From NCBI GenBank assembly GCA_016218805.1, contig JACRCW010000157.1, positions 62,001 to 108,205 of the forward strand: a DNA stretch of 46,205 nucleotides, read 5' to 3'. The first letter of the stretch is position 1. Each line of letters opens with the position of its first letter. The notes below the pieces were generated by a model. It ran no database searches and had not been told where the DNA came from. It was given only the letters and a program-made list of their open reading frames with translations. The translations under genes were made by a program, and so were the position numbers. The stretch is from Deltaproteobacteria bacterium. GTDB taxonomy: Bacteria > Myxococcota > JACRCW01. Shown in pieces: positions 3,996-44,883 of the stretch.

Positions 3996-4032
3996 TCTCG
4001 CCCCCCTGTGAACGTAACTGGACGCCCTGCTG

Positions 4033-21317: not shown

Positions 21318-21421
21318 CGGCGTCACGCGCGGAAAGCAGAACCCGCTCCCGGACAAGATGGAGACCCTCCGTCGGCTCAGCCCCCGCCCCGCGTCCGGCC
21401 GCACCGGCGTGCGGCCGCGTA

Positions 21422-21443
21422 GCCTCCCCCTCGGGGGGGAGGC
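21422..21443. other. Perfect 9-bp GC hairpin in intergenic region
   Basis: GCCTCCCCC-TCGG-GGGGGAGGC; no U-tract, function unknown. Confidence 0.4.
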
Positions 21444-21597
21444 GGCTTGCCGCTGTCAGGCGGCAAGCGGTGGGGGGGGGGGACGTGCAGCGGGCCCCGC
21501 GTGCGTTCGCCCTGGCTGCGCGCCGTCGCCCACCCTCCACCCGCCTCGGCGCTGTGCGCCTCGGCAACCTCCCCCACAGGGCGGGAGGCAAGCGCCC

Positions 21598-28200: not shown

Positions 28201-29147
28201 CGCTGCTGCGGGCCAACGGCGTTCCCGCGCGGGCGGTGGTGGCGCGCGGTGCGCTGGCGGCGGAGGCGGGGCTGGCGGTGCCGGGTGACCATGACGTGCT
28301 GCTGCTGGTGGTGCCGCTGCCGTCGGGGGACCGGGTGTTCACGCAGCTGGGCGGGCGGCTGGTGGACGGGGCGCCGCCGTGGCTGGTGACCGGGTCCGCG
28401 CTGGAAGCGGACTGTGACGAGATGGCGCGCTTGGGGCGGCGGTACGACCCGCCCGCGGTCCCCGCGGATGCGTGGGAACACCAGGTCCGGGTGGACGCCA
28501 CGGTCACCGCCGCGGGGCTGCTCAGCGGAACGGTGCGCGCGCAGGTGGCGGAGCCGGCCGCCGGCTCGCTGCGTGAGGAACTCCGCCGGGCCACGCCATC
28601 CCAGGTGGAGGCGTGGTTGTCGTCGCTGCTGCAGGCGCACTTCCCCGGTGTGCAGCTGGTGTCCACCGTGACGTCGGACCCGGGGGCGCGCGCGGGGCCG
28701 CTGGAACTGGAGCTGCGCTTCCAGAGCACGGACACGGTGCGGCGCTCGCCCCTGGGCGCGTGGACCTGGGACCGCTTCCTGGAGCAGCCGCTGCTGGATG
28801 ACGCGCTGGGTGGGAGCACGCCGGAGAGCTACCTGCGCGTGTCCGCCCGGAAGACGCCGCTGGTGCTGGGCCGGCCCTACCGCGAGCGCACGGTGGTGCA
28901 CCTGGACCTTCCCGCTGGCGCCACCGGCGTGGTGGTGCCGCGGGCGCTGGAGGCGCGCGGCCGCGGCTTCCTGGTGAAGCAGGACGCGGTGGTTCAGCCG
29001 GGCGCCGTGACGATCACGCGGGTCACCCACGTGGAGCCGGAACGCATCAGCGTGGAGGATTTCCCGGCGTGGCGCGCGCAGGTGGAACAACTGGTCCGGG
29101 ATGGGCGCAACGCGCTGGAATACCGGCTGGCCGAGCCGCCCCCGTGA
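25263..29147 (+). CDS. Paralogous TPR + DUF3857 + degenerate transglutaminase-like lipoprotein
   Basis: GTGA overlap with the previous gene; lipobox AAAC; same domain order (WTVAGPYG, PGWHRVGLEV, RVLKADGRVLEP, GLEPGDTVE). The GDC motif is replaced by GRGMHLP. Confidence 0.82.
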   Translation: MKRSALLVLVLVAAACRTAPPARTPAPPTRPVGRQPIPPARAVPQGAGVLVLSQRTGMATGQDAEALYWRAVQAWHVDNDAARAAVLVESALRAQPAHARALLLRCALGAADRRYAAFVEQCAATVEVAWGSWVAEAALVYADQARGQHPDHDARVATAALQALDSCTRGTGARCAALGARGLRAALGVAAARRDVAWWQSLAARAGVVTAWTVAGPYGPAEVDAFRGLAGFALAGIPPEPVHAGVRTAAFHRVARQVSDGALQPARLASPGLYAAESWVHLPRPARVLVEVRSAVSFRVALDGAVVLTHDEWADPPRPRATATVVMAPGWHRVGLEVSARGVDRVDVRLISDDGRAPLDQQFAALPEGSFPSPAAVPAPGLADLETEAEALFRASPDDVEAALAAVAAHAANGDAARARRLAEDVVEAFPASARALQMLSTVVEDDQALPAAVRQSLARAHCEKALAVDPRVLICRYRLAVLDQARRPEDTLRALTALVTDRPDYPHAWRSLMEVYRALGWNAEAAAAADRALALGAVDGVVDPAAAFFQSLGEGARARALRLRSALVDREPFSPRLAEWLADGLDDEAALKEWDRLLRVFPDHPDQVDRLALVRRSRDARTYHKALEAHVARFPADGDGILQWCTLSRSLGDARALRTCLERADAVVPSSSLLYRLREETAGREVGDDPALPVREVRSLVEELEAARRAGAPWLGDAATVVLVDHGRRVLARDGGGYSAKHRVVRIGTRDAADAMGEIRAGNDEEWRVLRVLKADGRVLEPEVGQGKGDVSLSGLEPGDTVEMRSVTLGRPPPVDGRFWEWFLLGDRYPVLHAEYVLDVPAALMSSLRIAERGVAAPRVVTLDGVVRHAWALDQVPARVPEPFSPNAAEYQPRVLVALGPDDGPDARTVCRRLAGTARTGRTLGDWNAHVARAGGGPDVILERVLDEVRARVEPAAGPWEAESAAALGRGMHLPLARALLRANGVPARAVVARGALAAEAGLAVPGDHDVLLLVVPLPSGDRVFTQLGGRLVDGAPPWLVTGSALEADCDEMARLGRRYDPPAVPADAWEHQVRVDATVTAAGLLSGTVRAQVAEPAAGSLREELRRATPSQVEAWLSSLLQAHFPGVQLVSTVTSDPGARAGPLELELRFQSTDTVRRSPLGAWTWDRFLEQPLLDDALGGSTPESYLRVSARKTPLVLGRPYRERTVVHLDLPAGATGVVVPRALEARGRGFLVKQDAVVQPGAVTITRVTHVEPERISVEDFPAWRAQVEQLVRDGRNALEYRLAEPPP

Positions 29148-30207: not shown

Positions 30208-33200
30208 TTACTGGCACACCATACTGATGGATCTCGTGCCGGTGTCGTATGAACTTGTGCTGCAGTTGTTTCCGGCTGGTCCCGTCCAGACCCGCGAGAA
30301 GAAGCCGCCCGTTCCCCCAACAGTAAGTCCAAGATTCGATGTATTGCTGGTGTACGTGTACGACGTCGAACCAGTGCGGGCAGCACATGATGAGTTGCTG
30401 GTGAGATGGGTCGAAGGCGCTTTGTAGAACTCGGGAATGAACTGCCAGGCACCGAAAGCGGTGCCATCCTGCCTAGTGATTCGAACGGTGGTCGCACTCG
30501 ATGTCACCGAGATGATCTCCTGGCAGTAGGTCGTTCCACAGGAGGGTGCGGTTGAATAGCTATACGTTGTTGGACACGGCGAACATGTTGGCGCGGATCC
30601 ACTCCAGCTGCCGCTCAACTGGCAGGTCCGCGAGCTGGCCCCAGACATCACGTAGTACGTATTACAGGAGTAGGTCGCGGTGCTGCCATATGTCGTGGTC
30701 GGGGCGCTCACGCTGCCATTTGTCGGGTTTGAGAGCGAGCCGCAGTTTATGGGTGGGCAGGTTGGTGCCGACCCGCTCCAGGTGCCTCCGGCGCCGCAGG
30801 TCCGGGTGCTCGAGCCGCTGATGTTGTAGCCGGTATTACAGGCGTACGTGGCGGTGGCGCCGAAGGTGGTCGTTGGCGCGCTGACCGTGCCATTGCTCGG
30901 GTTTGTCAGCGAGCCGCAGTCCACGGGCACGCACGACAGGGCCGAACCGCTCCAGAAGCCTCCGGTTCCGCAGGTCCGGGTGCTCGATCCACTGATGTTG
31001 TAGCCGGTATTGCAGGAGTACGTGGCGGTGCCGCCCAGTGTGGTCGTTGGCGCGCTGACCGTGCCATTGCTCGGGCTGGTCAGCGAGCCGCAGTCCACCG
31101 GAACGCAAGACGGGGCCGAACCACTCCAGGCGCCTCCGGTGCCGCAGGTCCGGGTGCTCGCGCCACTGATGTTGTAGCCGGCATTGCAGGAGTATGTGGC
31201 GGTCCCGCCGAATGTGGTCGTTGGCGCAGTGACCGTGCCATTGGTCGGATTGGCCAGCGAGCCACAGTCCACCTGCACGCACGACGGGGCCGTACCGCTC
31301 CAGAAGCCTCCGGTTCCGCAAGTCCGGGTGCTGGAGCCGCTGATGGGGTAGCCGGCATTGCAGGAGTAGGTGGCGGTGCTGCCATATGTGGTCGTTGGCG
31401 CGCTGACCGTCCCATTGGTCGGACTTGTCAGCGAGCCGCAGTCCACCGGCACGCACGACGGGGCCGAACCGCTCCAGACGCCTCCGGTGCCGCAGGTCCG
31501 GGTGCTCGAGCCGCTGATGTTGTAGCCGGTATTACAGGCGTACGTGGCGGTGGCGGCGAACGTGGTCGTTGGCACGCTGACCGTGCCATTGGTCGGACTT
31601 GTCAGCGAGCCGCAGTCCACCGGCACGCACGACGGGGCCGTACCGCTCCATGTACCTCCGGTATCGCAGGTCCGGGTGCTGGATCCGCTGATGTTGTAGC
31701 CGGGACTGCAGGAGTACGTGGCGGTGCCGCCCAGTGTGGTCATTGGCGCGCTGACCATGCCATTGCTCGGATTGGTCAGCGAGCCGCAGTCCACCGGCAC
31801 ACACGACGGGGCCGTACCGCTCCATGCACCTCCGGTATCGCAGGTCCGGGTGCTCGAACCGCTGATGCTGTAGCCGGTATTGCACGAGTACGTGGCGGTG
31901 CCGCCCAGTGTGGTCGTTGGCGCGCTGACCGTGCCATTGCTCGGATTGGTCAGCGAACCGCAGTCCACCGGCACGCACGACGGGGCCGAACCGCTCCATG
32001 CACCTCCGGTGTCGCAGGTCCGGGTGCTCGAACCGCTGATGCTGTAGCCGGTATTGCACGAGTACGTGGCGGTGCCGCCCAGTGTGGTCGTTGGCGCGCT
32101 GACCGTGCCGTCGCTCGGGTTTGTCAGCGAGCCGCATTCTACCGGCACGCACGAAGGAGCCGAACCGCTCCATGAGCCTCCGGCCTCGCAGGTTCGGGTG
32201 CTGGAGCCGTTCATGGTGTAGCCGGTGTTGCAGGAGTACGTGGCAATGCTGCCGTATGTGGTTGTTGGCGCACTGACAGTGCCATTGCTCGGGCTTGTCA
32301 GCGAATTGCAGGCCGCCACCACACACGCCCCGCCGGCACAACCGATGAGGCAGGTCGACGTTTCCGTCCACCCGCAGCCGGTCAGGGCGCAGGTTTCTTC
32401 ATTCCCGTTGCCGCTACAGCGCGTCGCGCTTGGGAGACACGGGTCGGTGCAGGCCGGTCCACCATCTCCCCCGTCCGCGAATCCACCATCTTGAACCGCA
32501 GGGCCCCCATCACGCGGCGCTCCGCCGTCGGGCGGCCCGGAGGCCGACGAGCCGGACGTGTTGGAGGAGGAGATCTGGGAGGCCGCGGCCGACGAGGGCC
32601 CGATTTCGATGGAACCCCCCGATGGCGACCCAGAGGAGGCGCCATACGAAGAAGGAGCGGACGACGAAGCGCCGGACGAGGACGGCCCCGAGGAACTGGT
32701 GCCACAAACGGCGGTGTCTTCGTCAACAACGTCATCGCAGTCGTTATCCTGGCCGTCGCACCACTCGTTCGTGGGTCCGGTCGCACCTTGGCAGGGACTC
32801 CAGTGGACGCCATCGGTACACGTCTGTAGGCCGCTCCGACACTGCCCAACGTCGCTGCCGCAGTGGCGCTCTCCACCCTGCGCGCACACGGTGGAGTTGG
32901 ATTCATCATCGTCCACCACATCCTGGCATCCGGGGTCGTCGGGGTAGTCCGCCAACCCATCGCTGTCGTCATCGCTTCCATTTCCACAGGCCCCTACAGG
33001 AGAGGGCTTGAGTTCCACTTCCAGAGTGCCGTGGCCCGGGTCGTCGGATTGGACCACGAGATACCCTGAGGTCGCGCGCTCGCTGCGCGAATAGACCACA
33101 ACAATGGCGGTGGACCCGCCAGGCTCCACCGTTAGCCCGTTGAACACCTCCGCGAGCGAGAAGTCGTTGTTGGCGTCGGTTGACCTGACTCCCACGCTTC

Positions 33201-33762
33201 GGATGGTGAGTGGAGCGCGCCCGAAGTTGCCCAGGCTGACCGTGCCCTGCAAGGTCAACATGAGCGGGTTTGTCAGGTGTCCCGCAGAGAAATCCAGCGG
33301 TGACGGGGACGCCATGATGCGCGGAAGTGCCGGTCCGAACAAGGTGACGCGAACTTCCGGCAGGTCCGGGTCATTGCTCCTGAGCACCAGCGTTCCCGTG
33401 TCCTCCCCGGGGCCCAGCGGCGTGAACCGCACGTTCACGTTGTGCGATTCGGCGCGGGGGAGTGTAAAGGCCAAGGGCTGGGCAGGAAGGGCGAAGTCGG
33501 GAGAGCCAGCGTCCGCATCTACAAATATCGCGCTGACGGCCAACGGCCCGTCACCTTGGTTGAGAACTTGTATCGGAAGGTCTTGGGTCTCTCCCAGCGG
33601 CACCCAGCCAAACTCCAGGGTGGTGGGAGACACAGAGATCCTCCCGGAGACTGTTGTGATGTCGTCATCATCATCAAGGATCGGACAGGCGCAGTCAGCC
33701 ACCAGCAAACCGCCCATCAGGAAGAGCACCCACGCCCTGGTCACCCGGTTCTTGTTTGTCAT
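30208..33762 (-). CDS. Surface protein: two Ig-like (choice-of-anchor D-like) domains, Asp/Cys metal-binding repeats, Ser linker, ten Sushi/CCP domains, unknown C-terminal domain
   Basis: ISVSPTTLEFG..NQGDGPL..V.F.P..G.L.L.SNDP, EWCDGQDNDCDDVVDE, and 10 x C..L..P.NG.V....TT.G..ATYSC..GY...G...RTC...G.WSG.AP.C. Confidence 0.9.
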   Translation of the reverse strand: MTNKNRVTRAWVLFLMGGLLVADCACPILDDDDDITTVSGRISVSPTTLEFGWVPLGETQDLPIQVLNQGDGPLAVSAIFVDADAGSPDFALPAQPLAFTLPRAESHNVNVRFTPLGPGEDTGTLVLRSNDPDLPEVRVTLFGPALPRIMASPSPLDFSAGHLTNPLMLTLQGTVSLGNFGRAPLTIRSVGVRSTDANNDFSLAEVFNGLTVEPGGSTAIVVVYSRSERATSGYLVVQSDDPGHGTLEVELKPSPVGACGNGSDDDSDGLADYPDDPGCQDVVDDDESNSTVCAQGGERHCGSDVGQCRSGLQTCTDGVHWSPCQGATGPTNEWCDGQDNDCDDVVDEDTAVCGTSSSGPSSSGASSSAPSSYGASSGSPSGGSIEIGPSSAAASQISSSNTSGSSASGPPDGGAPRDGGPAVQDGGFADGGDGGPACTDPCLPSATRCSGNGNEETCALTGCGWTETSTCLIGCAGGACVVAACNSLTSPSNGTVSAPTTTYGSIATYSCNTGYTMNGSSTRTCEAGGSWSGSAPSCVPVECGSLTNPSDGTVSAPTTTLGGTATYSCNTGYSISGSSTRTCDTGGAWSGSAPSCVPVDCGSLTNPSNGTVSAPTTTLGGTATYSCNTGYSISGSSTRTCDTGGAWSGTAPSCVPVDCGSLTNPSNGMVSAPMTTLGGTATYSCSPGYNISGSSTRTCDTGGTWSGTAPSCVPVDCGSLTSPTNGTVSVPTTTFAATATYACNTGYNISGSSTRTCGTGGVWSGSAPSCVPVDCGSLTSPTNGTVSAPTTTYGSTATYSCNAGYPISGSSTRTCGTGGFWSGTAPSCVQVDCGSLANPTNGTVTAPTTTFGGTATYSCNAGYNISGASTRTCGTGGAWSGSAPSCVPVDCGSLTSPSNGTVSAPTTTLGGTATYSCNTGYNISGSSTRTCGTGGFWSGSALSCVPVDCGSLTNPSNGTVSAPTTTFGATATYACNTGYNISGSSTRTCGAGGTWSGSAPTCPPINCGSLSNPTNGSVSAPTTTYGSTATYSCNTYYVMSGASSRTCQLSGSWSGSAPTCSPCPTTYSYSTAPSCGTTYCQEIISVTSSATTVRITRQDGTAFGAWQFIPEFYKAPSTHLTSNSSCAARTGSTSYTYTSNTSNLGLTVGGTGGFFSRVWTGPAGNNCSTSSYDTGTRSISMVCQ
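30583..32310 (-). repeat. Ten tandem 174-bp (58-aa) intragenic Sushi repeats
   Basis: Near-identical nucleotide units, for example recurring cagcgagccgcagtccac and ccgggtgctcga. Confidence 0.95.
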
Positions 33763-33936
33763 TGGTGAACCTCCCCGGCAGAGGCAACAAGGAACTCAGA
33801 GAGACCCTCCAGAGCCTTGTGTCTGCGTAGGCACCCATGGTGCACCGACGGTGGCTGCGGCATTCTTATGTCAATGCCCCCCCCCTGTATGGGCGCCGCT
33901 ACCGCGGTGCCGGCCCGGCGGAATACCCTCCTAAGG

Positions 33937-35070
33937 ATGATCACAGTCTTTCGCCATCTTACGCCTCCCGCGCAGGACCTCTTGGTAGAGGCCTGCGGGC
34001 GGTTCGATGCCGGGCAGGCGCTGGCCTTGCGGAGGTACTTCGAAGGGCGACCGCGCGCACCTAAGGGGGAAACGCGCCAGGCGGCATACGGCCAGCTCAG
34101 CCGCGCGGTCACGACGGCTATCGCCGGCAGCCTGGCGCTCGCCACGGTGGACCCGCGCTACCACCGTCTCGTGCTGAGCAACGACTTCGCGCTCCTCAAG
34201 GCGTACTGTCCGTCCGTGTACTCGCGCTATGACAGCTTTCCGCCTGATATGCGGGCGCCGCCCAGCCCGGCCATCAAGCGCCTGATCGACGACGCCGCGA
34301 CCGAGATGATCCACCTGAGCGGCTTGCCGGAACCGCTGTCCCGTGTTGACAGCGTCCGCGCGTATTCCATGGCGGCGGTGCTGGCCGTCACGCTGGTGGA
34401 CCACGGTCTCCGTCCCGGCATCCGGGACCTGTGGAAGGACATCTTCCGCCGGGCCGAAGGCGCGGGGGCGCTCGCGCGTCCCTACTTCCGGGCACAGTTC
34501 TGCTATTTGGGTTCATTCGTCGGTGAGTGGAACGACTACGTTCAGTGGCTCATGGAGCCGGCCAACCGCCTGCTCGAGGAGGCCGACCTCGTGTGCTTCT
34601 CGCGCGAGGACCTGGGCGACCCCCTGTACAATTGCGTGGCCGCCCTGGTGGCCGGGCGGCCGTACGGCGCACTGGACGCACTCCACCCAGCGCGACCGGA
34701 GAAAACGGTGACGGATATCCTGGGATTTGCGCGCGGCGCGGCGCACCGGCACAGCCACTTCAGGACGCCCGGCCTGGTCGCCGGAGTGTTGAGTTGGGCC
34801 ATGATGGGCCGGGACTTGGCAGCGAGGCTCCAGCCCCGCCGCGCGGTTGATGACAACGAGGCGGCCTGCGTCTCTGCGCAGCTGCGACGCGGGATTGCCA
34901 AAGTCACCGAGGTGCTCGATCAGCGGGGGGCGCGCTTCTGGCAAGCGATGGAGGAGGTGGGGGACCAGCACCAACGTGAGTTCATGTTGCGCTGCTGGGC
35001 CACCTTGATGCTTGACGGGGGCGCGGCGGGGCAGCACGGACCGGACGACTGGTTCTTCGGACGTACCTGA
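33937..35070 (+). CDS. Hypothetical protein divergent from the Sushi gene
   Basis: Long ORF with coding-like codon bias; start uncertain (33817, 33868 or 33937); no recognisable family motif. Confidence 0.65.
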   Translation: MITVFRHLTPPAQDLLVEACGRFDAGQALALRRYFEGRPRAPKGETRQAAYGQLSRAVTTAIAGSLALATVDPRYHRLVLSNDFALLKAYCPSVYSRYDSFPPDMRAPPSPAIKRLIDDAATEMIHLSGLPEPLSRVDSVRAYSMAAVLAVTLVDHGLRPGIRDLWKDIFRRAEGAGALARPYFRAQFCYLGSFVGEWNDYVQWLMEPANRLLEEADLVCFSREDLGDPLYNCVAALVAGRPYGALDALHPARPEKTVTDILGFARGAAHRHSHFRTPGLVAGVLSWAMMGRDLAARLQPRRAVDDNEAACVSAQLRRGIAKVTEVLDQRGARFWQAMEEVGDQHQREFMLRCWATLMLDGGAAGQHGPDDWFFGRT

Positions 35071-35250
35071 GCGCTGAGGCGGACCGGCCGGGCCGCGCAC
35101 GGGCACCCGGGTTCTGACGCCGTGCTTCGGCGGAGGGCTTCCATCGGTCGGTCGCCTATTGGATGGGTTTGCCCCCCCGTGCCACCGGCTGGTAGCACGC
35201 CGCCATCAACCAATGCGGGGCACGCGTCACGCGGCCCGCGAGGAGGCCAC

Positions 35251-36000
35251 TTGGCTGACCGTCCATTTGATGCGCAGAGCATCATCCAACTCCCCCGGCT
35301 CAATGCCGATGAAACCCACACCGCGGTCCAGCAACTGACCGCGGAGGCGGCCGCGGTGCCCGGCCTGCCGGGCGGCATCTCCGACGCCCTGGCGGAGATG
35401 AAGGCCTCCGACGCCCGGCTGCTTGCCGCCATGGCCTCCAAGGGCCGCGCCGAAGCCAAGGCCGCCATTGACCCGAACCGCGCCCGCGCCGCGGACAAGT
35501 TCTCCGACTGCGCGTGGGGCGGGACCCGCAGTTGGTTGGAGGGTTTTGAGGAGTTGCCGGAGGCCTACCAGCCTGATCCGCAAGCGGTGCGCACGCTCAA
35601 GACGCGCCTGTTTGGTGATGGGAGCGGGTTTCTCGCGCAGCCGTTCAAGGAGCAGTGGGCCGAGTGTGACCGCCGTCTGCTCGTCATTGCTGAAGAGGGC
35701 CTGGCGCCGCTGTTCACCAAGCTGGGCGGAGACGGCTTCCTGCGCGCGCTCAAGGATTCCCACGCGGAGTACGGCGCCGCGCTGCATGTCACCGCGGCGG
35801 CGCCGTGGGTTGCGCCGGATTTGGATGTGCGCGGCCCAATGCAGGAATGCCAGTACGCCATTCGGTTCTATGCCACGCAGGTCGTCGCCAGCATCAAGCC
35901 CAAGGACCCGGCAACCCGGGAACGCGCTGACCGGCTCCTGCGCCCGCTGATTGAGTGGAAGTCGGAAGTCACGCCCGCTCCGGCGGCAACTCCTATCTGA
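35251..36000 (+). CDS. Hypothetical helical-bundle-type protein directly upstream of a tandem repeat array
   Basis: AGGAGG then TTG at 35251; 249 aa with an amphipathic helical pattern (ARAADKFSDCAW, RLFGDGSGFLAQPFKEQW, LKDSHAEYGAAL, LLRPL). Confidence 0.8.
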   Translation: MADRPFDAQSIIQLPRLNADETHTAVQQLTAEAAAVPGLPGGISDALAEMKASDARLLAAMASKGRAEAKAAIDPNRARAADKFSDCAWGGTRSWLEGFEELPEAYQPDPQAVRTLKTRLFGDGSGFLAQPFKEQWAECDRRLLVIAEEGLAPLFTKLGGDGFLRALKDSHAEYGAALHVTAAAPWVAPDLDVRGPMQECQYAIRFYATQVVASIKPKDPATRERADRLLRPLIEWKSEVTPAPAATPI

Positions 36001-36015
36001 CATCGGCGCACCCCT

Positions 36016-36363
36016 GACCACCCTCCAGGGTGCCTCCGCCGCTCTGCATTGCGGTTGGACCACCCTCCAGGGTGCCCTCCACCGCTCTGCATTGCGGTTG
36101 GACCACCCTCCAGGGTGCCTCCCGCCACTCTGCATTGCGGTTGGACCACCCTTCAGGGTGCCTCCCACCAGTCTGCATTGCGGTTGGACCACCCTTCAGG
36201 GTGCCCTCCACCAGTCTGCATTGCGGTTGGACCACCCTTCAGGGTGCCCTCCACCAGTCTCCATTGCGGTTGGACCACCCTTCAGGGTGCCTCCCACCAC
36301 TCTGCATTGCGGTTGGACCACCCTTCAGGGTGCCCTCCACCAGTCTGCATTGCGGTTGGACCA
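36016..36363. repeat. Eight tandem 43-bp repeats, each with an internal palindrome
   Basis: Units start at 36016, 36058, 36101, 36144, 36187, 36230, 36273 and 36316, with a partial unit at 36359. Consensus GACCACCCTYCAGGGTGCCYYCCRCCRSTCTGCATTGCGGTTG, containing CACCC-TYCA-GGGTG. Confidence 0.97.
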
Positions 36364-36406
36364 GCCTCCGGGGGTCGCCGCGCGTGATGCGGGTCACGGT
36401 TGCGGC

Positions 36407-36636
36407 CGGTCACCCGGCTCGCTGGATGCTGGGGTATCAGCGCCCGTTGGCGCCACTGAACCTGAGGAGAACCGCAGTTCACTCAAGGGACTCACGCTGC
36501 CGGAAGCCGAAGCGTGACACATCAAGAACGGCGTTCCGGAGGTACCCATCGCGTCGGTGCCGGGTGCCGCAGCCATGGAACCGGGGCGGGCTGCTGGGTC
36601 CCCGCGGCGTATCGGTCGGTGCGCGCGTGGTGGAAC
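36407..36636 (+). pseudogene. Decayed duplicate of the upstream region and 5' end of the RlmI-like gene at 45838 onward
   Basis: Aligns by eye to 45838-~46072 (cggtcaccc..gctggat..tggggtatcagcgccc..cctgaggagaaccgca..tcactcaagggactcac..ctgccggaagccga). ATG is changed to AGT, a GAG codon is TGA, and there is a short deletion. Confidence 0.9.
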
Positions 36637-36769
36637 CCACGGCGATACTGAACCGGCAAAACCCTGTCGGTCTTCCTGTGGTGCCTGGACGCGGAGCTCC
36701 CGGACCTCATGCTGGTGACCAGGCCTGCGTGCAGCGCGGCACGGGGAGTGTGCCTGCGGAGACCTGGGC

Positions 36770-37057
36770 GTGCTGATGGGCATCCTGCGGACGCGGTCAC
36801 GCAGCGTGTGGCCCGGCGTGCTCATGCAGGCGCTGCACAACGGGCTGGTGGCGGGCGCGGCATTTGGCGGCACGGGGTTGGTGGACCTGGAACCGCTGGT
36901 GGCGTCCCAAATGTCCGGGCCCGTGCTTGCCGCGTTGGGGGCATCCACCCGCACCGCGGGCGTGGCTGGCGTGGCGCGCGCGCGCGGAGGGTTGACGGGG
37001 TTCGTGCACGGCTGCGCCTTGCACCCATCGGGTGATGGAGGGACGCTCCGGTCATGA
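36770..37057 (+). pseudogene. C-terminal remnant of a CPBP (Abi/CAAX) intramembrane protease
   Basis: GVLMGILRTRSRSVWPGVLMQALHNGL resembles the CPBP C-terminal motif (G..L.....GSLWP.I..H...N), with His replaced by Gln. The EExxxR motif is absent. Confidence 0.55.
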
Positions 37058-38640
37058 CATCGCTGCCGCGCGCCAACCGGTCACACTTGGAAGCCATCAG
37101 CGTGGAGGACCTGCTGGGTCACGTGGACACGGGACACATCCGGGTTCCGAGGTTCCAGCGCGACTTCAAGTGGGACCAGGCCGACGTCATCCGCCTGCTG
37201 GATTCCATCTACCGTGGTTATCCCGTGGGTACCCTCCTGTTCTGGGAACGGCCCCGGCCCGCCGAGGATGTGCGTCTTGGGGCACGCGTCATACCTGCCC
37301 CGGAACGGGCGGACGCCTGGCTGGTGCTGGACGGACAGCAACGCGTCACCGTGCTGGCCAACGTGCTGCATGACCCCGGGCAGGATGGCGTTACGGACCC
37401 GGTCTTCAGAGTGGCGTTCGACTTGCGCTCGCGCGAGTTCGTCCCGGCCGGCGGACACGAACCGCACGTGCTGCCGCTTCATGTGCTGCGCGACTTTGGT
37501 GACCTCCTGGCGTGGTTCCAATTGAACCAGGCGGACCTTTCCCACCAGGGCGCCGCGCGGGACCTTCTCGGGCGCCTGCTTGGCTACCGCCTGGCGGTGC
37601 ACGTGCTCCGCGACGAAAGCGAGGACACGGCGCGCGAGGTGTTTGACCGGATGAATCATTCCGGCAAGGCGCTGACGGCGGTGGAGGTGTTCACCGCGGC
37701 CCAACCGGGGGCGTCGCAGGTATCGCTCCCGTTGCTCGCGGTGGAACTGGAGCAGCAGGGCTACGGGGTCATCTCCGTGGAGCAGCTGATGAACGCCATC
37801 ATCATCGCTGATGGACGGGACCCCACGCGCGGCGCAGCCGAAGCCGCCCGGGATGCAGCGCGGGACGGTGCCATGGAGAGGGTCCTGCCGGCCACGCGCG
37901 CCGCCGCGGCCTTTGCCATGGACGCGGGGATGCAGTCACTTGCTTTGCTGCCTGCCTTCTCCACGTGGATCGCGTTGGTCCGCTTCTTCCACCTCCATCC
38001 CCGCCCGCACCCGCGCAACCTGATCCTCCTGCGCCGCTGGTTGTGGCGTGACCTCTATGTGCGCGCGTTTGCAGATGACAACCGGACGCCCCAGCGGTTC
38101 ATCCTTGCCAGCGTGACGACGGACGAGGACGCGTCCGTCCAGGCGCTGCTGGAACGGACAGGGGCAAACCGTCATCCGCTGGTGCTGGACCAGAAGTACG
38201 ATCCACGCGCGGCGGATGCGCGCGCGGCGTTGAGGGTGCTCCTTGCCCTTGAACCCAGGGCGCTGGATGGCCACCCCACGCGTGCCGCGGACGTTCGGAA
38301 GAAGGCATGGGCCAACCTCCCGCGCCTCGTGCCCGGCGGCCTCTCCGTGGCCAACCGTCTGCTGTGGGGTCCTCGCGAACACGACACGTGGGCGGACTGG
38401 GCGCAGGACCAGGACACCCCCACACCACCCGCGGAATTCCTGGTCAGCCACGGTGTCACGCCGGAGACATGGCAACTCCTGGTGGCGGGCCGGGACGAAG
38501 AAGCGCTCCGTACGCGGCGCGTGCACCTGGAGCGGGAGTGCCAGCGCTACGTGGACGCGCGCGCGGAGTGGGAGCAGGAGGACCGCGGGCCCATCCGCCT
38601 GGAGGACGAGGATGTCGGAGGCGACTGTCTGGTTGCGTGA
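37054..38640 (+). CDS. DUF262 (GmrS/ParB-Srx-like) domain protein
   Basis: IRVPRFQRDFKW, LLDSIYRGYPVGTLLFW, LVLDGQQRVT, EVFDRMNHSGKALT. C-terminal SVANRLL and FLVSHGV with no clear HNH motif. Confidence 0.92.
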   Translation: MTSLPRANRSHLEAISVEDLLGHVDTGHIRVPRFQRDFKWDQADVIRLLDSIYRGYPVGTLLFWERPRPAEDVRLGARVIPAPERADAWLVLDGQQRVTVLANVLHDPGQDGVTDPVFRVAFDLRSREFVPAGGHEPHVLPLHVLRDFGDLLAWFQLNQADLSHQGAARDLLGRLLGYRLAVHVLRDESEDTAREVFDRMNHSGKALTAVEVFTAAQPGASQVSLPLLAVELEQQGYGVISVEQLMNAIIIADGRDPTRGAAEAARDAARDGAMERVLPATRAAAAFAMDAGMQSLALLPAFSTWIALVRFFHLHPRPHPRNLILLRRWLWRDLYVRAFADDNRTPQRFILASVTTDEDASVQALLERTGANRHPLVLDQKYDPRAADARAALRVLLALEPRALDGHPTRAADVRKKAWANLPRLVPGGLSVANRLLWGPREHDTWADWAQDQDTPTPPAEFLVSHGVTPETWQLLVAGRDEEALRTRRVHLERECQRYVDARAEWEQEDRGPIRLEDEDVGGDCLVA

Positions 38641-39821
38641 CGTGCAGGTGGGGACCCTGGGATTCGCGTCCGGAAGTTCGGCTTTCCGTTTTGAGCGGAA
38701 CTACCGGGACATGCCCAACCGCCCGGTGCTTTCCCAGCAGTTTGAACAGCGGGGGCTGGACAGGGCCTACCAGTCCGGCGCCGGACTGCCGGCGTTCTTC
38801 GTTCACCTGCTCCCTCCCAACGGCAGCGAACTGCGGGCGCTCCTGGACCGCATGCTGGAGAACCCTGGCGACGCGCGCCTGCTCGAGCACCTGGGGCAAT
38901 CACTCCCCGGGGCGGTGCGCGTGCTCCTGGCCCGCACGGCCGAGGCACAGACTCCGGCGCCGGCAGGTTCACAGGCGTCCGGACCGCTGCGCTTTTCGCT
39001 TGGGGGGATGCAGTTGAAGTTCAGCGCGGACAAGCCGTCCTGGGAGCCGCGGTTTGCGCTTCCCGCCGCGGGCCTCGGAGGCCAGTGGATCCTCAAGGCG
39101 CCCGCCATGGGCTGGCCGGACCTTGCCCGGACCGAGCGCCTGGTGACAGCGTGGGCAGGGCTGCTGGGCATCACGGTGCCGGAGTCCGGTCTTGTTGCCG
39201 CCCTCCAGGGTCCTGAACCTGCCCGTGTCCCTCCCCGACGACATGCTGTTGCTGGCAACACGCCGCTTTGACCGCGATGAGGAAGGTGGTGCCGTCCATG
39301 CCGAGGACCTTGCACAGGCATTGGGGCTTCGCGCAGACCCCAACGCCGCGTACCGGGGTGTGACCTACGCGGGCATCGCGCGTTTCGTCAGCACGCTGAT
39401 GGACGCGGACGACCACGTGGAGTTCGCGCGGCGGCTTGTCTTCATGGTGCTCTCCGGGAACGGTGATGCGCACGCCAAGAACTGGGGCATCTTCTACCCG
39501 GATGGCATCCATGCGCGGCTCTCCCCGGCGTACGACCTCGTCTTCACGCGGTCCTACGTGCGCGGGAGTGAACTCGCGTTGAAGATGGGCAGGGCTGCGG
39601 ACCGGTCGTGGGGCAGCGTGACGCGGGCAAGCCTGCTCTCCGCGCTGGCCGGGACCGGCGTCGGTGCCGCCGTGCTGCAGGACACCCTGGGCACCATGGT
39701 GGAGACGGCAACGGCACGCCTGGGGGACGCGCTTGCACGCGTGGAGGCACCTCCAGACAGCAGCACGCTGCAGGCGCTCCGCACCCACCTGGAAGTCATG
39801 CGGGTGGCGCTGGGAACGTGA
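38612..39821 (+). pseudogene. hipA: HipA-family Ser/Thr kinase toxin with a single extra base (true frameshift or sequencing error)
   Basis: N-terminal part in ORF 38243..39271 (VGTL..FRFERNY, LPAFFVHLLP, FSLGGMQLKFS, WILK). C-terminal part in ORF 39192..39821 (RRFDR, HAEDLAQALG, GNGDAHAKNW, LSPAYDL). Span 1210 nt = 403 codons + 1; the shift is near 39191-39205. Confidence 0.88.
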
Positions 39822-40233
39822 CCCGCACCCGGCTCACGCCTCGTCGTCGTTCCGTCGGAAGCCCGGTGCATCCTGCGCTTGGTCGGGCCAGCCACGGCGC
39901 CGCGCCCCCACGCCCGTGTCCATCTGGTTGGATGCTGCGGAGCTGCGCCATGCGAACATCCTACCGGGCCGCGAGGTGCGACGCGGGCTTCCTTACCTCA
40001 GTCACCCCGGAGCGCACGCAACTCCCTGGCCGCTCAGCCCCGAGCCGCCGAAGACCGGGTAGCCCGCCCAATGGGTGAAACGCGCGGCACTCCTGCCCTC
40101 GACATTCCAATTCGGCAAGGGGCTACCGCGTGCGGGCCAGCCGTCCACGCCGTAGCGGAGGCTGCTTGTGCGCCCAGGTAGCGGCAAGCTCAGGCGGCCG
40201 CGTGGTGCGCGCGTGCACCGCCCTGCCCGGTGT

Positions 40234-40341
40234 GGCCACGGCAGCGGCCTGTTTCCCCCGGCTTGCTGGATCCCCGCAGGTGATCTGCCTACTTCTCTTC
40301 GATCGGCTCTTGAACCCCGAGCGCGTCCCACGCCGGACCTC
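40234..40341 (+). pseudogene. Possible eroded fragment of DNA polymerase III alpha subunit (DnaE catalytic-motif region)
   Basis: 40292-40327 reads LLFDRLLNPERV against the DnaE signature LLFERFLNPERV. It is followed after a 1-nt gap by TPDL (SMPD[IF]D in DnaE) and preceded by GHGSG (GRGSG in DnaE). Confidence 0.4.
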
Positions 40342-40692
40342 GGGTCCGAGCCGGGGCGAAGCCGGTCGAGCTGTACCGCGCGGAGCGGAGGACTCCTGTG
40401 CGCACTCCTAAAGATGGGGAGCCACGCGAAAGGCGTCATCATGGTGGCCAGTTCCGCCCCGCCCCATCAAAGGCGCCGGCCTCCTCGGGCCGGTGCAATC
40501 GTGCGCCGCGTCGAAGGCCGGCTGAGTCGAAGGGCCCCACAGCAGGAACGGCGCTTCTTCGCCCCCGCCGATCCGGCGCGCGCCTGACTCGAGCTCTGCG
40601 GCGACCCGTCGGTGAGGAGTCGTGGGCATCCGGCTGGGGGCCTACGGTTTCGTAGGATTTTGGTCCCACTGGAATTGTGCGATCACGCGGCA

Positions 40693-43600
40693 ATGACAAA
40701 TCGCTCAACGTCGGCGTCCTCGTGTGACCCTCGTGCAACGGGAGGCCAGGCGGTCCTGGTCGCCATGGCGCTGCTGCCCTGGCTGGCGGCGTGCGGGGGC
40801 CATGCAGCGGTCCAGAGCCATCCGGACGCCTCGGAGGTCCGTGACGCCGGAAGAGTCGGAGCGGACGCGGGCAATACAAACGAGCCCGACGCGGGCAATA
40901 CGAGCGAACCCGACGCGGGCAATACGAGCGAGCCCGACGCTGGCAACACGAGCGAGCCCGACGCGGGCAATACGAGCGAACCCGACGCGGGCATTACGAG
41001 CGAACCCGACGCGGGCAATACGAGCGAACCCGACGCGGGCAATACGAGCGAACCCGACGCGGGCAATACGAGCGAACCCGACGCGGGCAATGCGAGCGAA
41101 CCCGACGCGGGCAATACGAGCGAACCCGACGCGGGCAATACGAGCGGACCCGACGCGGGCAATACGAACGAACCCGACGCGGGCAATACGAGCGGACCCG
41201 ACGCGGGCAATACGAGCGAACCCGACGCGGGCAATACGAACGAACCCGACGCGGGCCAAACCCCTGCGCTCGACGGGGGCGAGCCCGACCCCGCACCTCC
41301 AGCGCCCGAGACGCTGGGGCTCTCGTGCGCGACCGCGGCGGACTGCGACGACGGCAACCCCTGCACGGTCGCGAGCTGCGACCTCGACGCGGCGCTGGGT
41401 CGGAGGGCCTGCGTGGTCGCCCCGCGGCCGCTCGGGGCGCTCTGCAGCGACGGCAACGCCTGCACGGTCGACGACCACTGCGTCGAGGCCCGGTGCCGGG
41501 GGACGGCCCGGGGCTGCGACGGCGCCTGCGACACCGGCGAGTGCGATCCTGCGACAGGCTGCGAATCGGTACCCGACGGAACCACGTGCGACGATCGTGA
41601 TCTCTTCACCACCGGGGATGCCTGCACCGGCGGCCGCTGCCGAGGGGCGTCCGAGTGCGTGCCGCCGCAGCCCGCCCCCTGCGTCGCGGGCGTGATCGAC
41701 CATGTCGGCGGGACCTGCTCGGCCGCCTACTACGCCGCCGGCCAGGCCTGCCCTGATGACGGCGACCCCTGCACCCGTGACGAGTGCGACGGGCTGGGCA
41801 CGTGTGTCCACCCCGGGCGCGGGCAGGGCGCGGCGTGCAGCCACGGCTGCGGCCCCGGGATCTGCGCGGCCGACGGGGCGTGCGTGCTCGCGACCAGCGA
41901 GTGCGGCCGGCTCGACAACGCCTGCGGCCAGGGCGGGTGTGACGGTGATGCGTGCGTCTACGACAGCGGCGATGACGCGGCCTGCGACGAGACGGGCACC
42001 AACTGCGCCGCGAGCCTCGGAGCGTGCTTCACCGGTGGGTGCGGCGACGGCTGGTGCACCGGCGGCGAGCAGGAGTTCAACTGCACGGCGGACTGCTCCT
42101 CGCCCTGCGAGTTCGACTGCCTGGAGAGCTGCGCCAAGACGTACCGCGCCTTCCCCTGGCGGGGCGCGTGGCGGGCGGCCCAGAGTGCGGCGTACGGCTT
42201 CCCGCTCCACTCGCGCTTCCAGACCCAGTCGTTCACGCAGATGCTCCAGGACGGCATCCGCTGGCTCCATCTTGTCGTCGATTACTGCCAGCCCGGCGTC
42301 TCGAGCGGCCCGATCTGCCTCTGCCGCGGCGACGACACCTGTCCCGCCGCCTCGACCCCGCTTGACGGGCGGCTCACGGAGGTACGGGCGTTCCTGGAGG
42401 CGCGCCCGGGGGCGGTGGTCACGCTCTACTTCGAGCGCGCGTTCGTCTCGGATGACGATCTCAAGGCGGCCATCGACCGGGCCGGGCTCGCGCGCTGGCT
42501 GTACCGCGACCGGCCCACGTACGACGAGCGGTTCGACGTACGGCTCGCGACCATGGCGCGCCATGATCGCCGGCTCGTTGTGATCGGTGGTCCGTACATC
42601 AGCCTCCGCCACGTCTTCCTCACGAACGACGGTCCCCCGGTGGCGGCGGGAGCCGGCCCCAGCCGCGGTCCGTCGAGCATCTTCGTGTTGAACGCCGACA
42701 ACGAGCCGCCGTGGGACTGCGAGCGTGCGGGCCTCGGGCCCTTCGACCCGCCCTACGACCAGGACCCGCCCGGGCGGCTGTTCGCCGTACGGCACACGCT
42801 CGAGGGCCGCGATTCGTCCGTCGAGACGGACCGGGTGAGTACCGCCTGCTTCAACGGCCGGCTCGCCGAGCACTCGGACGCCTGCGTTGAGCGTCATCCG
42901 GGCGTGGCGCCGCTGACCGTTGCCCTCACGGCGTACTACGACAGCCATCCGGACGCGCTCAAGCCGGTGGTCCACCTGGCGAGGTCGACCCGCATCGTGC
43001 GGTGCGGGTCCAACGTGGCGAGCCCGCTGAGTCAGTGCCCCGAGGACGTGGCCACCTGCAGCTCCGACGCCGCCTGCCCGCAGGGCGCCACCTGCAACTG
43101 GCTCGGGGTCTGCGTCGACTGTGTCGCTGACGGCGACTGTGCGGACGGGCAGTACTGCCACGACGCGTGGAGTGCTTGCCTCACGCGGCTCCCCGATGGG
43201 GACTACTGCTCCCGCGACACGATGTGTGCGAGCGGCAACTGCGGGTTGCTCTGCTACTCCTGCAGCACCCACGCCGACTGCGACGAGGGCGAGTGGTGCG
43301 ACGTCTTTGGCGGCTGCCAGGTCAAGGTCGCCAACGCCTACGGCTGCCTCTCGGACGCGGAGTGCCTCTCGGGCGCCTGCCACCTCGGGTTCTGCGCCGC
43401 GTGCAACTCCCAGGACGACTGCACGGTGGAGGGCCGTTTCTGCTCGCTCGACCCCGCGCCGGGGGCAAGCGCCTGCCTCGCGCGCAAGGCGGACGGCGCG
43501 CTGTGCGCGAACGACTTCGAATGCGGCTCCGGGGCGTGCCACCTCGGTACCTGCCAGCCGTGCAACTCCCACGACGACTGCGCGGCCCTGGAATACTGCA

Positions 43601-44883
43601 CGCTGCCCGTGGTGCCGGGCCTCGCCAGCACCTGCGAGGCCGCGCAGGGCGAGGGCGGTGCGTGCCTTGGCTCCGCCGAGTGCACGTCACCCCTCACCTG
43701 CCACGCTTCCGGCACCTGCCGCGCGAGCTGCTCGCTCGACACGCACTGCCCCGCGACGCACTTCTGCGTCCTCGGGGGCTGCGTGCCCCGGCTCGACCTA
43801 GGCGCCGCCTGTACGCGCAACCGCATCTGCAGCAGCGACCGGTGCTGGCTCGGCTTCTGCGTCGAGTGCGCCAGCCAGGCCGACTGCCAGTCCGACTCGT
43901 TCTGTACCCTCGACCCGGTGCCGGGCCAGAGCAGCTGCGTCGCGAAGAAGGCGTTCGGTACCCTCTGCGCAAGCGCCTACGAGTGCACCAGCAACCGTTG
44001 CGACGTGACCTGCGTGGATTGCACCGCGGCCCCGGCGGCCGGCTGCACCTTCTCGACGCAGTACTGCGAGTTCGGCCTGTGCAACGCCAAGAAGGCAACC
44101 GGCCAGAGCTGCGCCACCTCCAACCAGTGCACCTCGGGTATCTGCGACCTCTTCAAGTGCGTCCAGTGCACCAACGTCCCGCAGACCGGGTGCAACTTCT
44201 CCACGCAGTACTGCAGCGCTGGCGCCTGCAACCCGAAGAAGTCGAACGGCCAGAGCTGCGGGACCTCCGCCGAGTGCTCGTCGGGAATCTGCGACCTCTT
44301 CAAGTGCGTCCAGTGCACCAACGTCCCGCAGAACGGGTGCAACTTCTCGACGCAATACTGCAGCGCCGGCGCCTGCTACTCAAAGAAGTCGAACGGCCAG
44401 ACCTGTGGGGCCTCCGCCGAGTGCACCTCGGGTATCTGCGACCTCTTCAAGTGCGTCCAGTGCACCAACGTCCCACAGAGCGGGTGCAACTTTTCGACGC
44501 AGTTCTGCAACGGCGGCGCGTGCTACGCGAGGAAGTCGAACGGCTCGAGCTGCTCGACGTCCTCGGAGTGCTCGTCGGGTATCTGCGATCTCTTCAAGTG
44601 CGTGCAGTGCAACGCGTCCAGCGGGTGCACCTCCACCCAATACTGCGAGGCCGGCACCTGCTACGCGGAGAGGTCAAACGGCAGCGACTGCGCCTTCTCC
44701 AATCAGTGCCAGTCCGGGATCTGCGACCTGTTCAAGTGCGTGCAGTGCAATGCCTGGGGCGGCTGCACGTCGAGTCAGTACTGCGAGACGGGCAGCTGCC
44801 AGGCGAAGAAGGGCTCCGGCAGCTCGTGCGGCTCAAGCGACCAGTGCACCTCAAACGACTGCTTCTTGTGGACGTGCCGCTGA
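40693..44883 (+). CDS. Large Cys-rich lipoprotein: DAGNTSEP repeats, Cys-rich repeats, degenerate PI-PLC-like domain, C-terminal Cys repeats
   Basis: Lipobox LAAC, CDDGNPCT-type modules, QTQSFTQMLQDGIRWLHL..LCRG..LTEVRAFLEARPGAVVTLYFE, repeated KKSNGQSC..S.EC.SGICDLFKCVQC. Confidence 0.85.
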   Translation: MTNRSTSASSCDPRATGGQAVLVAMALLPWLAACGGHAAVQSHPDASEVRDAGRVGADAGNTNEPDAGNTSEPDAGNTSEPDAGNTSEPDAGNTSEPDAGITSEPDAGNTSEPDAGNTSEPDAGNTSEPDAGNASEPDAGNTSEPDAGNTSGPDAGNTNEPDAGNTSGPDAGNTSEPDAGNTNEPDAGQTPALDGGEPDPAPPAPETLGLSCATAADCDDGNPCTVASCDLDAALGRRACVVAPRPLGALCSDGNACTVDDHCVEARCRGTARGCDGACDTGECDPATGCESVPDGTTCDDRDLFTTGDACTGGRCRGASECVPPQPAPCVAGVIDHVGGTCSAAYYAAGQACPDDGDPCTRDECDGLGTCVHPGRGQGAACSHGCGPGICAADGACVLATSECGRLDNACGQGGCDGDACVYDSGDDAACDETGTNCAASLGACFTGGCGDGWCTGGEQEFNCTADCSSPCEFDCLESCAKTYRAFPWRGAWRAAQSAAYGFPLHSRFQTQSFTQMLQDGIRWLHLVVDYCQPGVSSGPICLCRGDDTCPAASTPLDGRLTEVRAFLEARPGAVVTLYFERAFVSDDDLKAAIDRAGLARWLYRDRPTYDERFDVRLATMARHDRRLVVIGGPYISLRHVFLTNDGPPVAAGAGPSRGPSSIFVLNADNEPPWDCERAGLGPFDPPYDQDPPGRLFAVRHTLEGRDSSVETDRVSTACFNGRLAEHSDACVERHPGVAPLTVALTAYYDSHPDALKPVVHLARSTRIVRCGSNVASPLSQCPEDVATCSSDAACPQGATCNWLGVCVDCVADGDCADGQYCHDAWSACLTRLPDGDYCSRDTMCASGNCGLLCYSCSTHADCDEGEWCDVFGGCQVKVANAYGCLSDAECLSGACHLGFCAACNSQDDCTVEGRFCSLDPAPGASACLARKADGALCANDFECGSGACHLGTCQPCNSHDDCAALEYCTLPVVPGLASTCEAAQGEGGACLGSAECTSPLTCHASGTCRASCSLDTHCPATHFCVLGGCVPRLDLGAACTRNRICSSDRCWLGFCVECASQADCQSDSFCTLDPVPGQSSCVAKKAFGTLCASAYECTSNRCDVTCVDCTAAPAAGCTFSTQYCEFGLCNAKKATGQSCATSNQCTSGICDLFKCVQCTNVPQTGCNFSTQYCSAGACNPKKSNGQSCGTSAECSSGICDLFKCVQCTNVPQNGCNFSTQYCSAGACYSKKSNGQTCGASAECTSGICDLFKCVQCTNVPQSGCNFSTQFCNGGACYARKSNGSSCSTSSECSSGICDLFKCVQCNASSGCTSTQYCEAGTCYAERSNGSDCAFSNQCQSGICDLFKCVQCNAWGGCTSSQYCETGSCQAKKGSGSSCGSSDQCTSNDCFLWTCR
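40864..41256 (+). repeat. Sixteen tandem 24-bp in-frame repeats encoding DAGNTSEP
   Basis: gacgcgggcaatacgagcgaaccc x16 with minor variants, followed by a final gacgcgggc. Confidence 0.97.

Follow-up and report, generated by a model that had tools for sequence, protein, structure and literature searches.

What restrains a HipA kinase when the gene upstream of it is not hipB? This question is raised by a two-gene locus in a stretch of 46,205 nucleotides (nt) from a deltaproteobacterium (Myxococcota, lineage JACRCW01; GenBank assembly GCA_016218805.1, contig JACRCW010000157.1, positions 62,001 to 108,205 of the forward strand), the whole of which is here called the window, and in which a gene of the DUF262 family runs directly into a gene for HipA. 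Kinases of the HipA family are the classic toxins of persistence and are known to be restrained by helix-turn-helix (HTH) proteins (HipB, HipR) or by domains of the HipS type. On balance the evidence presented here inclines us to the view that DUF262-HipA is an undescribed toxin-antitoxin-like module of the Hip type, in which a BrxU-like protein stands in the place of HipB and would both bind and gate the kinase.

Conservation of the DUF262-HipA gene pair

A survey of one genome per species, performed with a family-alignment scan, retained 80 loci with DUF262 relatives. In 43 of these a HipA gene is located directly downstream, usually overlapping the DUF262 gene; it is present in one open frame in 37 loci, broken in two (L036 and L087) and detected as a single part in four (L032, L050, L059 and L065). 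Another 11 loci have less than 1200 nt of downstream sequence, leaving the state of HipA undecidable, and 26 have no HipA downstream, these being mostly remoter DUF262 proteins together with two full-length relatives (L015 and L074). Among the genomes of 60 relatives a DUF262 match was found in three, and both strong ones (G032 and G035) have HipA directly downstream, while the metagenome contigs added the pair in nine loci. The carriers belong to at least five phyla, Myxococcota, Actinomycetota (Streptomyces, Saccharomonospora, Dactylosporangium and Rathayibacter), Acidobacteriota, Pseudomonadota (Alpha-, Beta- and Gammaproteobacteria) and Planctomycetota. Intact pairs exist in culturable and harmless bacteria, such as Myxococcus (among them M. 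qinghaiensis), Streptomyces and on two plasmids of Azospirillum (pAB510d of Azospirillum sp. B510 being an example of a plasmid with an intact pair), where the Prokaryotic Genome Annotation Pipeline (PGAP) names the genes 'DUF262 domain-containing protein' and 'type II toxin-antitoxin system HipA family toxin'.

Of 36 intact pairs, 28 have their two genes -17 to +7 nt apart, and in the remaining eight the distance is 34–67 nt. For the window, a first-pass annotation of the sequence had given an overlap of 29 nt, and this is correct, the ATG of HipA being situated at 38612 and the stop codon of the DUF262 gene ending at 38640. When all open reading frames (ORFs) of at least 90 aa in 41 loci and the window were clustered all-against-all, the recurrent genes were DUF262 and HipA only, the other large clusters consisting of their antisense shadow frames, and no third conserved gene was found beside the pair.

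The same annotation had seen no gene for an HTH antitoxin flanking the pair. No Pfam match to HTH or HipB was found in the neighbouring ORFs, and a HipB profile had no match between 33000 and 43000 of the window. Run over 47 pair loci and this part of the window, the profile matched in two places, both non-adjacent to the pair and neither in the window; it matches 33 of 33 control loci by construction, having been built from the HTH proteins of those 33. DUF262-HipA is a conserved, mobile, self-contained and translationally coupled two-gene cassette without HipB.

Relationship to HipB-linked kinases

A search of metagenomes from the side of the kinase gave 80 HipA loci with 41–61% identity to an intact orthologue. 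A DUF262 gene lies directly upstream in nine, and a small HTH_3 protein is encoded upstream, as in classical hipBA, in 34 of the 36 other loci with enough upstream DNA. The DUF262 gene occupies the usual place of hipB upstream of HipA.

To this was added a maximum likelihood tree (LG+G4, quick search, no outgroup) of 111 HipA proteins, in which 36 of the 43 loci from genomes and 75 of the 80 from metagenomes are represented, broken or incomplete genes being excluded. One clade, with a Shimodaira-Hasegawa-like approximate likelihood ratio (SH-aLRT) support of 99, consists of 33 HipB-linked kinases and 32 for which the upstream gene was not assessed, and contains none linked to DUF262. All 45 DUF262-linked kinases fall outside this clade together with one unassessed protein, and the partner label changes once in the tree. 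The DUF262-linked kinases thus form a lineage separate from the HipB-linked ones in this unrooted tree, in which either partner, DUF262 or HipB, may have come first.

The closest metagenome relative (L091, 2986–4178; 61% identity) has no DUF262 gene upstream, but was rejected as an exception because it is a decayed remnant, its HipA region containing only short ORFs of 97, 75 and 220 aa. Two loci of Myxococcaceae (L017, 1892–3844, and L022, 1947–3899) encode a DUF262-linked HipA that continues at the C-terminus into an S-adenosylmethionine-dependent methyltransferase domain (Methyltransf_25, E 2.9e-12), a kinase-methyltransferase of 650 aa in all.

The DUF262 protein

In a Pfam scan the only family found in the 528 aa protein of the window was GmrSD_N/DUF262 (residues 17–215, E 7.1e-25). 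An AlphaFold model of the family, with a mean predicted local distance difference test (pLDDT) value of 83.3 and a predicted template modelling (pTM) score of 0.63, was compared with known structures, and the best match was BrxU (7p9k), both with VIA (Z 15.1, root mean square deviation (rmsd) 15.0, 457 residues over model residues 10–508) and in Foldseek (E 8.6e-9); the high rmsd is explained by a different orientation of the domains. SspE and DndI were also among the best matches, the isolated C-terminal domain of SspE aligning with Z 7.9 and rmsd 5.7 (277 residues over model residues 208–508), and folds of the ParB, Noc and sulfiredoxin N-domains matched at Z 4.6–7.0 in model residues of about 11–206. 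The motifs DGQQR and FQR are invariant in two alignments (27/27 and 33/33 proteins), and the stretch RLLDS of the window protein aligns with RLFDS of BrxU, which is presented as a predicted nucleotide-binding motif by Payne et al. 2024 (10.1101/2024.01.29.577857).

The first-pass annotation had also remarked on the lack of a clear HNH nuclease motif. None of 27 family members matches DUF1524/HNH (PF07510) at E ≤ 1, and a segment with the HH and Asn residues ('FHHIFP...N...N') is kept in the relative P0086 alone, being replaced or deleted in the other aligned members. The protein is therefore BrxU-like, with the putative nucleotide-site motifs and the architecture kept and the HNH motif lost. 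Since the C-terminal half still has a fold like that of the C-terminal part of GmrSD and SspE, and since contact between both proteins is predicted (see below), one could also imagine a reverse logic, with HipA as the regulator and the DUF262 protein as its substrate or as the true effector, its DNA binding or a residual nuclease activity being controlled by phosphorylation. This we hold to be very improbable, as the nuclease motif is gone, the part that decays is the kinase and not the DUF262 gene, and the HipA kinases treated by Gerdes 2021 (PMC8262856) act on translation factors, with GltX as the target of HipA and TrpS as that of HipT.

Predicted complex of the DUF262 protein with HipA

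The complex was modelled with the cognate intact pair of locus L027 (DUF262 protein of 530 aa, HipA of 395 aa), each protein with its own alignment. The interaction score ipSAE was 0.81, 0.81 and 0.80 for the pair and 0.00 for the best of three controls; the pair thus passes the mark set for this score, which 116 of 157 solved complexes attain as against 2 of 215 mismatched pairs, counts that apply only roughly here since own alignments were used. Between the runs at least 94% of the contacts agree, and the pLDDT of the partner is at least 80. To our knowledge there is no solved complex of a DUF262 protein with HipA, and the score is therefore unlikely to reflect likeness to a solved structure.

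The predicted interface comprises residues 332–334, in a loop of the helical domain, and 508–530 of the DUF262 protein, facing residues 34 and 41–49 (N-subdomain), 237–261, 297–299 and 322–344 of HipA. The best-determined of the predicted contacts are made by the tail of the DUF262 protein, its last ~23 residues (…W-G-D-N-D-R-P-P-L-R-A-L-A-V-V…). Among the HipA-linked proteins this tail is conserved, D510 and the Pro position following R511 (numbers of the window protein) being nearly invariant. The corresponding tail in the window reads A-E-W-E-Q-E-D-R-G-P-I-R-L, and most of the DUF262 relatives not linked to HipA have a different, acidic tail. The model thus supports a direct binding of HipA by the DUF262 protein through its conserved C-terminal tail.

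The HipA gene of the window and its frameshift

The HipA gene of the window is split between two frames. The ORF in frame A (38612–39271) matches Couple_hipA (PF13657, E 1e-10) and positions 1–59 of HipA_C (PF07804, E 1.1e-5), the ORF in frame B (39192–39821) matches positions 64–188 of HipA_C (E 2e-29), and NCBIfam TIGR03071 matches as well. Alignment with 14 intact orthologues places a +1 shift at about 39195–39215, in the run GCCGCCCTCC, caused by one surplus base or two missing ones, and the gene, which lacks a single uninterrupted frame, contains no further stop.

The kinase motifs named in the first-pass annotation can all be read in the window: the Gly-rich loop RFSLGGMQLKFS (38990–39025), GDAHAKN (39462–39482) and SPAYD, with its Mg-binding Asp at 39534–39536. 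They align with columns that are invariant across 32 orthologues, and a Lys and a Glu that are likewise invariant (K162 and E175) are retained. In total 28 columns of HipA are invariant in the 32 orthologues, including Ser, Gly and Lys of the Gly-rich loop, D-x-H-x-K-N and the Mg-binding Asp, a pattern that places the kinase residues under selection. As every invariant residue is still in place, the kinase of the window seems to have been inactivated recently, beside an intact DUF262 gene.

The frameshift had been treated in the first-pass annotation as something simply to be repaired before experiments. It is present, but it does not look like an error: the frameshifted sequence was found identically and with 0 gaps in contigs of two sequencing runs, X1, which may be the source (depth 24.7), and X2, from another groundwater sample, with a contig of 450 nt (38816–39265, depth 3.4), the comparison being one of assembled contigs from one study. 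As contigs of two samples share the same extra base, the frameshift is probably real in this population, and the window copy of the module is therefore probably not a working system. HipA_C has a single match in the whole genome (6.4 Mb, 170 contigs). A programmed frameshift was set aside, HipA being read in one frame in 37 orthologous loci.

An intact DUF262 gene with HipA broken or missing beside it was found not only in the window but also in L036, L032, L015 and L074. Loss or breakage of the kinase with the DUF262 gene kept fits a costly toxin.

Comparison with known systems

With hipBA of E. coli K-12 the pair shares a HipA of full length that has the N-subdomain and every kinase motif, a partner gene that is immediately upstream and overlapping, and the character of a two-gene cassette scattered by horizontal transfer, and the HipB-linked kinases are the nearest relatives of those linked to DUF262. 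It differs in its partner, which is a putative nucleotide-binding protein of 530 aa and BrxU-like instead of an HTH protein of 70–200 aa; an HTH was not found here. With hipBST the pair shares a presumed neutraliser that is not an HTH protein. In sequence comparisons the core of the kinase matches HipT structures (E 5.5e-17) slightly better than E. coli HipA (E 8.6e-13), but the N-subdomain (Couple_hipA) is here part of the kinase and neither HipS nor HipB is present. Gerdes et al. 2021 (PMC8262856) set out ten Hip gene organisations, all of them without a DUF262 partner, and the main text of that paper never uses the words 'DUF', 'GmrSD' or 'restriction'; the text of its supplement contains neither the Azospirillum accession numbers nor the names of three genera searched for, which its non-text tables could still list.

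The type IV restriction enzymes BrxU, GmrSD and SspE have in common with the window protein the N-terminal DUF262 domain with DGQQR, a motif like RLFDS and, for BrxU, the fold over the whole length. In contrast to these enzymes the DUF1524/HNH motif is gone, and the output would lie with a kinase that has a gene of its own, not with a nuclease fused to the sensor.

When analysing the window protein with PADLOC the best model was PDC-M55C (PDLC04709; residues 15–502, E 1e-45). The PDC systems, which were proposed by 'guilt by embedding' (Payne et al. 2024, 10.1101/2024.01.29.577857), are untested candidates, and in that collection the C component of PDC-M55 is a DUF262 protein that likewise lacks the nuclease and agrees with the window protein in length and architecture. 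The true PDC-M55 loci, L078 and L070, differ from the pair both in their scores on C (E 3e-96 and 3e-89) and in having PDC-M55A, an AriA/NsnB-like ATPase, and PDC-M55B directly upstream. The upstream ORFs of the window (33817–35070 and 35122–36000) have no PADLOC match, and the intact HipA orthologues match no PDC-M55 model, giving weak matches to PDC-M03A only. Membership in PDC-M55 was thus rejected, the A and B components being absent and occurring only in L078 and L070. The first-pass annotation, which had known of no named system with this architecture, is in agreement with this, as the only related model belongs with the ATPase and B and not with HipA.

In L078 (3563–7722) and L070 (772–4782) the genes for the A component, an ATPase like AriA, NsnB and HEC-03B, the B component of ~320 aa and the DUF262 protein C overlap or nearly do so, which fills in a PADLOC candidate not described otherwise; no paper was found when searching the literature for PDC-M55 by name.

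A further parallel is ptuXYZ (Gerdes 2025, PMC11980606), described there as an operon headed by a DUF262 protein without DUF1524 and ending in a toxin domain, but with three genes, a PtuA-like ATPase and a PIN-BECR RNase, and no kinase. The nuclease-less DUF262 scaffold occurs with at least two partner sets, HipA and PDC-M55, and ptuXYZ is a third. As to the pairing itself, no paper describing it was found in the literature, where HipA together with DUF262 leads only to the unrelated ptuXYZ paper, and for HipA with phage defence, BrxU, SspE, ParB-like or PF03235 nothing relevant was seen by title and abstract among the matches listed. PADLOC v2 has no model of the pair, and genome annotation merely names both genes.

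If our reading is true, the pair would be an eleventh and widespread Hip organisation with a large restriction-derived nucleotide-binding protein as partner, and would link type IV restriction sensing to kinase toxins in a testable effector swap, nuclease exchanged for kinase. Its novelty would be twofold, the Hip module having gained a partner of a new class and the GmrSD-type sensor acting through a kinase in place of the nuclease.

Proposed function of the pair and its genomic context

In the module as we envisage it, the gene for a presumably nuclease-dead relative of BrxU and GmrSD precedes that for a full-length HipA Ser/Thr kinase, and the two are coupled in translation. The BrxU-like protein would bind the N-subdomain and core of HipA with its C-terminal tail and the loop of its helical domain and, like HipB or HipS, hold the kinase inactive, a nucleotide- or DNA-dependent state of its DUF262 domain determining the moment of release. 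On the model of HipA/GltX and HipT/TrpS the released kinase would phosphorylate a translation factor and growth would stop, with abortive infection and/or plasmid maintenance as the possible outcome.

Several observations weigh against this. The toxicity, the neutralisation and the trigger are all steps that we infer; the antitoxin role suggested in the first-pass annotation fits the predicted direct binding, and the sensing of modified phage DNA or nucleotides that it also suggested is conjectural. No catalytic residue of HipA is included in the predicted interface, leaving unexplained how binding would inhibit the kinase, and the complex score is a measure of model confidence that leaves the sign of the binding, inhibiting or activating, undecided. 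The tail gives weak support, as its loose pattern, shared by 25 of 35 linked proteins and by 3 of 16 unlinked ones, was defined post hoc. In L054 (5974–7561) and L067 (5983–7655), both in metagenome-assembled genomes, the DUF262 frame is broken and HipA intact; either the assemblies are in error there or these loci are counter-examples to a strict antitoxin role, under which such a break should not be tolerable.

The context of the pair lends no support to a defence function. PADLOC (E ≤ 1e-10) was run on two naive ORFs per side in 35 loci, and of the 128 ORFs it matched four, in four loci, three of them with the untested candidates PDC-S48, PDC-S09 and PDC-S03 and one with the generic methyltransferase model mad2. 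The flanks vary from locus to locus and are by Pfam mainly metabolic or housekeeping, with single cases of a DDE transposase, HEPN, Uma2 and NACHT. No full-length DUF262 relative was found in viral contigs, where 64 loci have partial matches to the N-domain only (best E 6e-11, residues 29–136), and a phage collection gave one partial match. In the window the closest defence genes, of a type I restriction-modification system (1073–5388), are more than 30 kb from the pair. Thus, of the claim for a new defence or toxin-antitoxin system made in the first-pass annotation, the conserved toxin-antitoxin-like pair without HipB stands and the defence part finds little in the neighbourhood; a defence role is plausible, unsupported by context, and the surroundings look like those of a scattered chromosomal or plasmid toxin-antitoxin cassette, not of a defence island.

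The broken DUF262 genes of L054 and L067 would be tolerable if HipA needed activation, i.e. if the DUF262 protein were the sensor of a two-part defence system and switched on an idle HipA at foreign or modified DNA, HipA alone being harmless and the two not related as toxin and antitoxin. The predicted binding, whose sign the model does not determine, is compatible with such an activator, every relative of the DUF262 protein that has been characterised (BrxU, SspE, DndI) is a sensor or enzyme of defence, the nearest PADLOC models are defence candidates, and the invariant nucleotide-site motifs would be needless for a passive antidote. Even so we find an activator rather unlikely, since the order and overlap of the genes are exactly those of hipBA and the nearest relatives of the kinase are restrained by HipB, since the kinase has repeatedly been lost or broken with the DUF262 gene kept, as expected for a costly toxin, and since the context is not that of a defence island.

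A second alternative is plain addiction or persistence, in which the DUF262 protein is only a substitute for HipB, a DNA-binding autorepressor and antidote without sensing or defence. The pairs are solitary cassettes amid housekeeping genes, and on one of the Azospirillum plasmids, which is conjugative, genes for a type IV secretion system and a recombinase adjoin the pair, the second plasmid also being large; the ParB-like N-domains are DNA- or nucleotide-binding folds and binding to HipA is predicted here too. A protein of 530 aa with invariant DGQQR and FQR motifs and a BrxU-like architecture, however, far exceeds what an operator-binding antidote needs, and its paralogues occur together with an AriA/NsnB-like ATPase as components of PDC-M55, a candidate defence system, so that we give this alternative, too, a small chance.

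The gated toxin-antitoxin-like module that we favour can be carried one step further, to an abortive-infection switch: upon meeting foreign or modified DNA a nuclease-less type IV sensor would change its conformation in dependence on nucleotide and DNA and so free HipA via the tail, and translation shutdown would replace cleavage, on a scaffold reused with the ATPase of PDC-M55 and the RNase of ptuXYZ. This we put forward tentatively, as a possibility on the doubtful side.

Features and neighbouring genes in the window

The features of the locus are collected in Table 1.

Table 1. Positions in the window of the DUF262 and HipA genes and of features within them
Feature	Position	Strand	Basis
BrxU/GmrSD-like protein gene without nuclease motif (DUF262 family; PADLOC PDC-M55C-like), 528 aa	37054..38640	+	Pfam, PADLOC, model
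DUF262 / ParB-Srx-like nucleotide-binding domain (putative), residues 17–215	37102..37698	+	Pfam; ParB/Noc/sulfiredoxin fold matches
DGQQR motif, residues 93–97	37330..37344	+	read in sequence; family-invariant
Conserved C-terminal tail A-E-W-x3-D-R-G-P-I-R-L ..., predicted HipA-binding peptide	38563..38637	+	alignment, complex model
GGAGGA ribosome-binding site of HipA, within the end of the DUF262 gene	38601..38606	+	sequence; 6–11 nt before ATG 38612
HipA 5' part, frame A: N-subdomain (Couple_hipA), Gly-rich loop, ATP Lys	38612..39210	+	Pfam, TIGR03071, alignment
+1 frameshift site splitting HipA	39195..39215	+	homology switches from frame A to frame B
HipA 3' part, frame B: catalytic GDAHAKN, Mg-binding SPAYD, C-terminal helices	39192..39821	+	Pfam, alignment

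A scan of 36300–40700 for promoters and terminators gave 0 promoter-like sites and two terminator-like sites against 1.9 expected, and tells nothing in DNA so rich in G+C. On the upstream side of the DUF262 gene, at a distance of about 690 nt, a 43 nt unit is repeated in tandem (36016–36367, 8.2 copies, 93% matches), and a stretch of 190 nt of this array recurs once elsewhere in the genome (contig C78) with 95% identity. Clustered regularly interspaced short palindromic repeats (CRISPR) were considered for the array and rejected, there being no spacers.

Apart from this repeat and two ORFs without family, the pair is flanked by two large genes for proteins of secreted type. The first (30208–33762, minus strand) encodes 1184 aa with ten Sushi/CCP repeats, a domain typical of animals, and the second (40612–44883, plus strand) a Cys-rich protein of 1423 aa with ~20 'DAGNTSEP' repeats and a Dickkopf-like match. 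The restriction-modification system at the other end of the window is partial and located on the minus strand, consisting of HsdS (1073–2347), a DUF5131 protein (2344–3075), an ORF without family (3075–3995) and HsdM (4033–5388). Two overlapping adjacent genes at 21196–25266 and 25263–29147, encoding 1356 and 1294 aa, both contain DUF3857, the first together with a transglutaminase core, and look like a tandem duplication.

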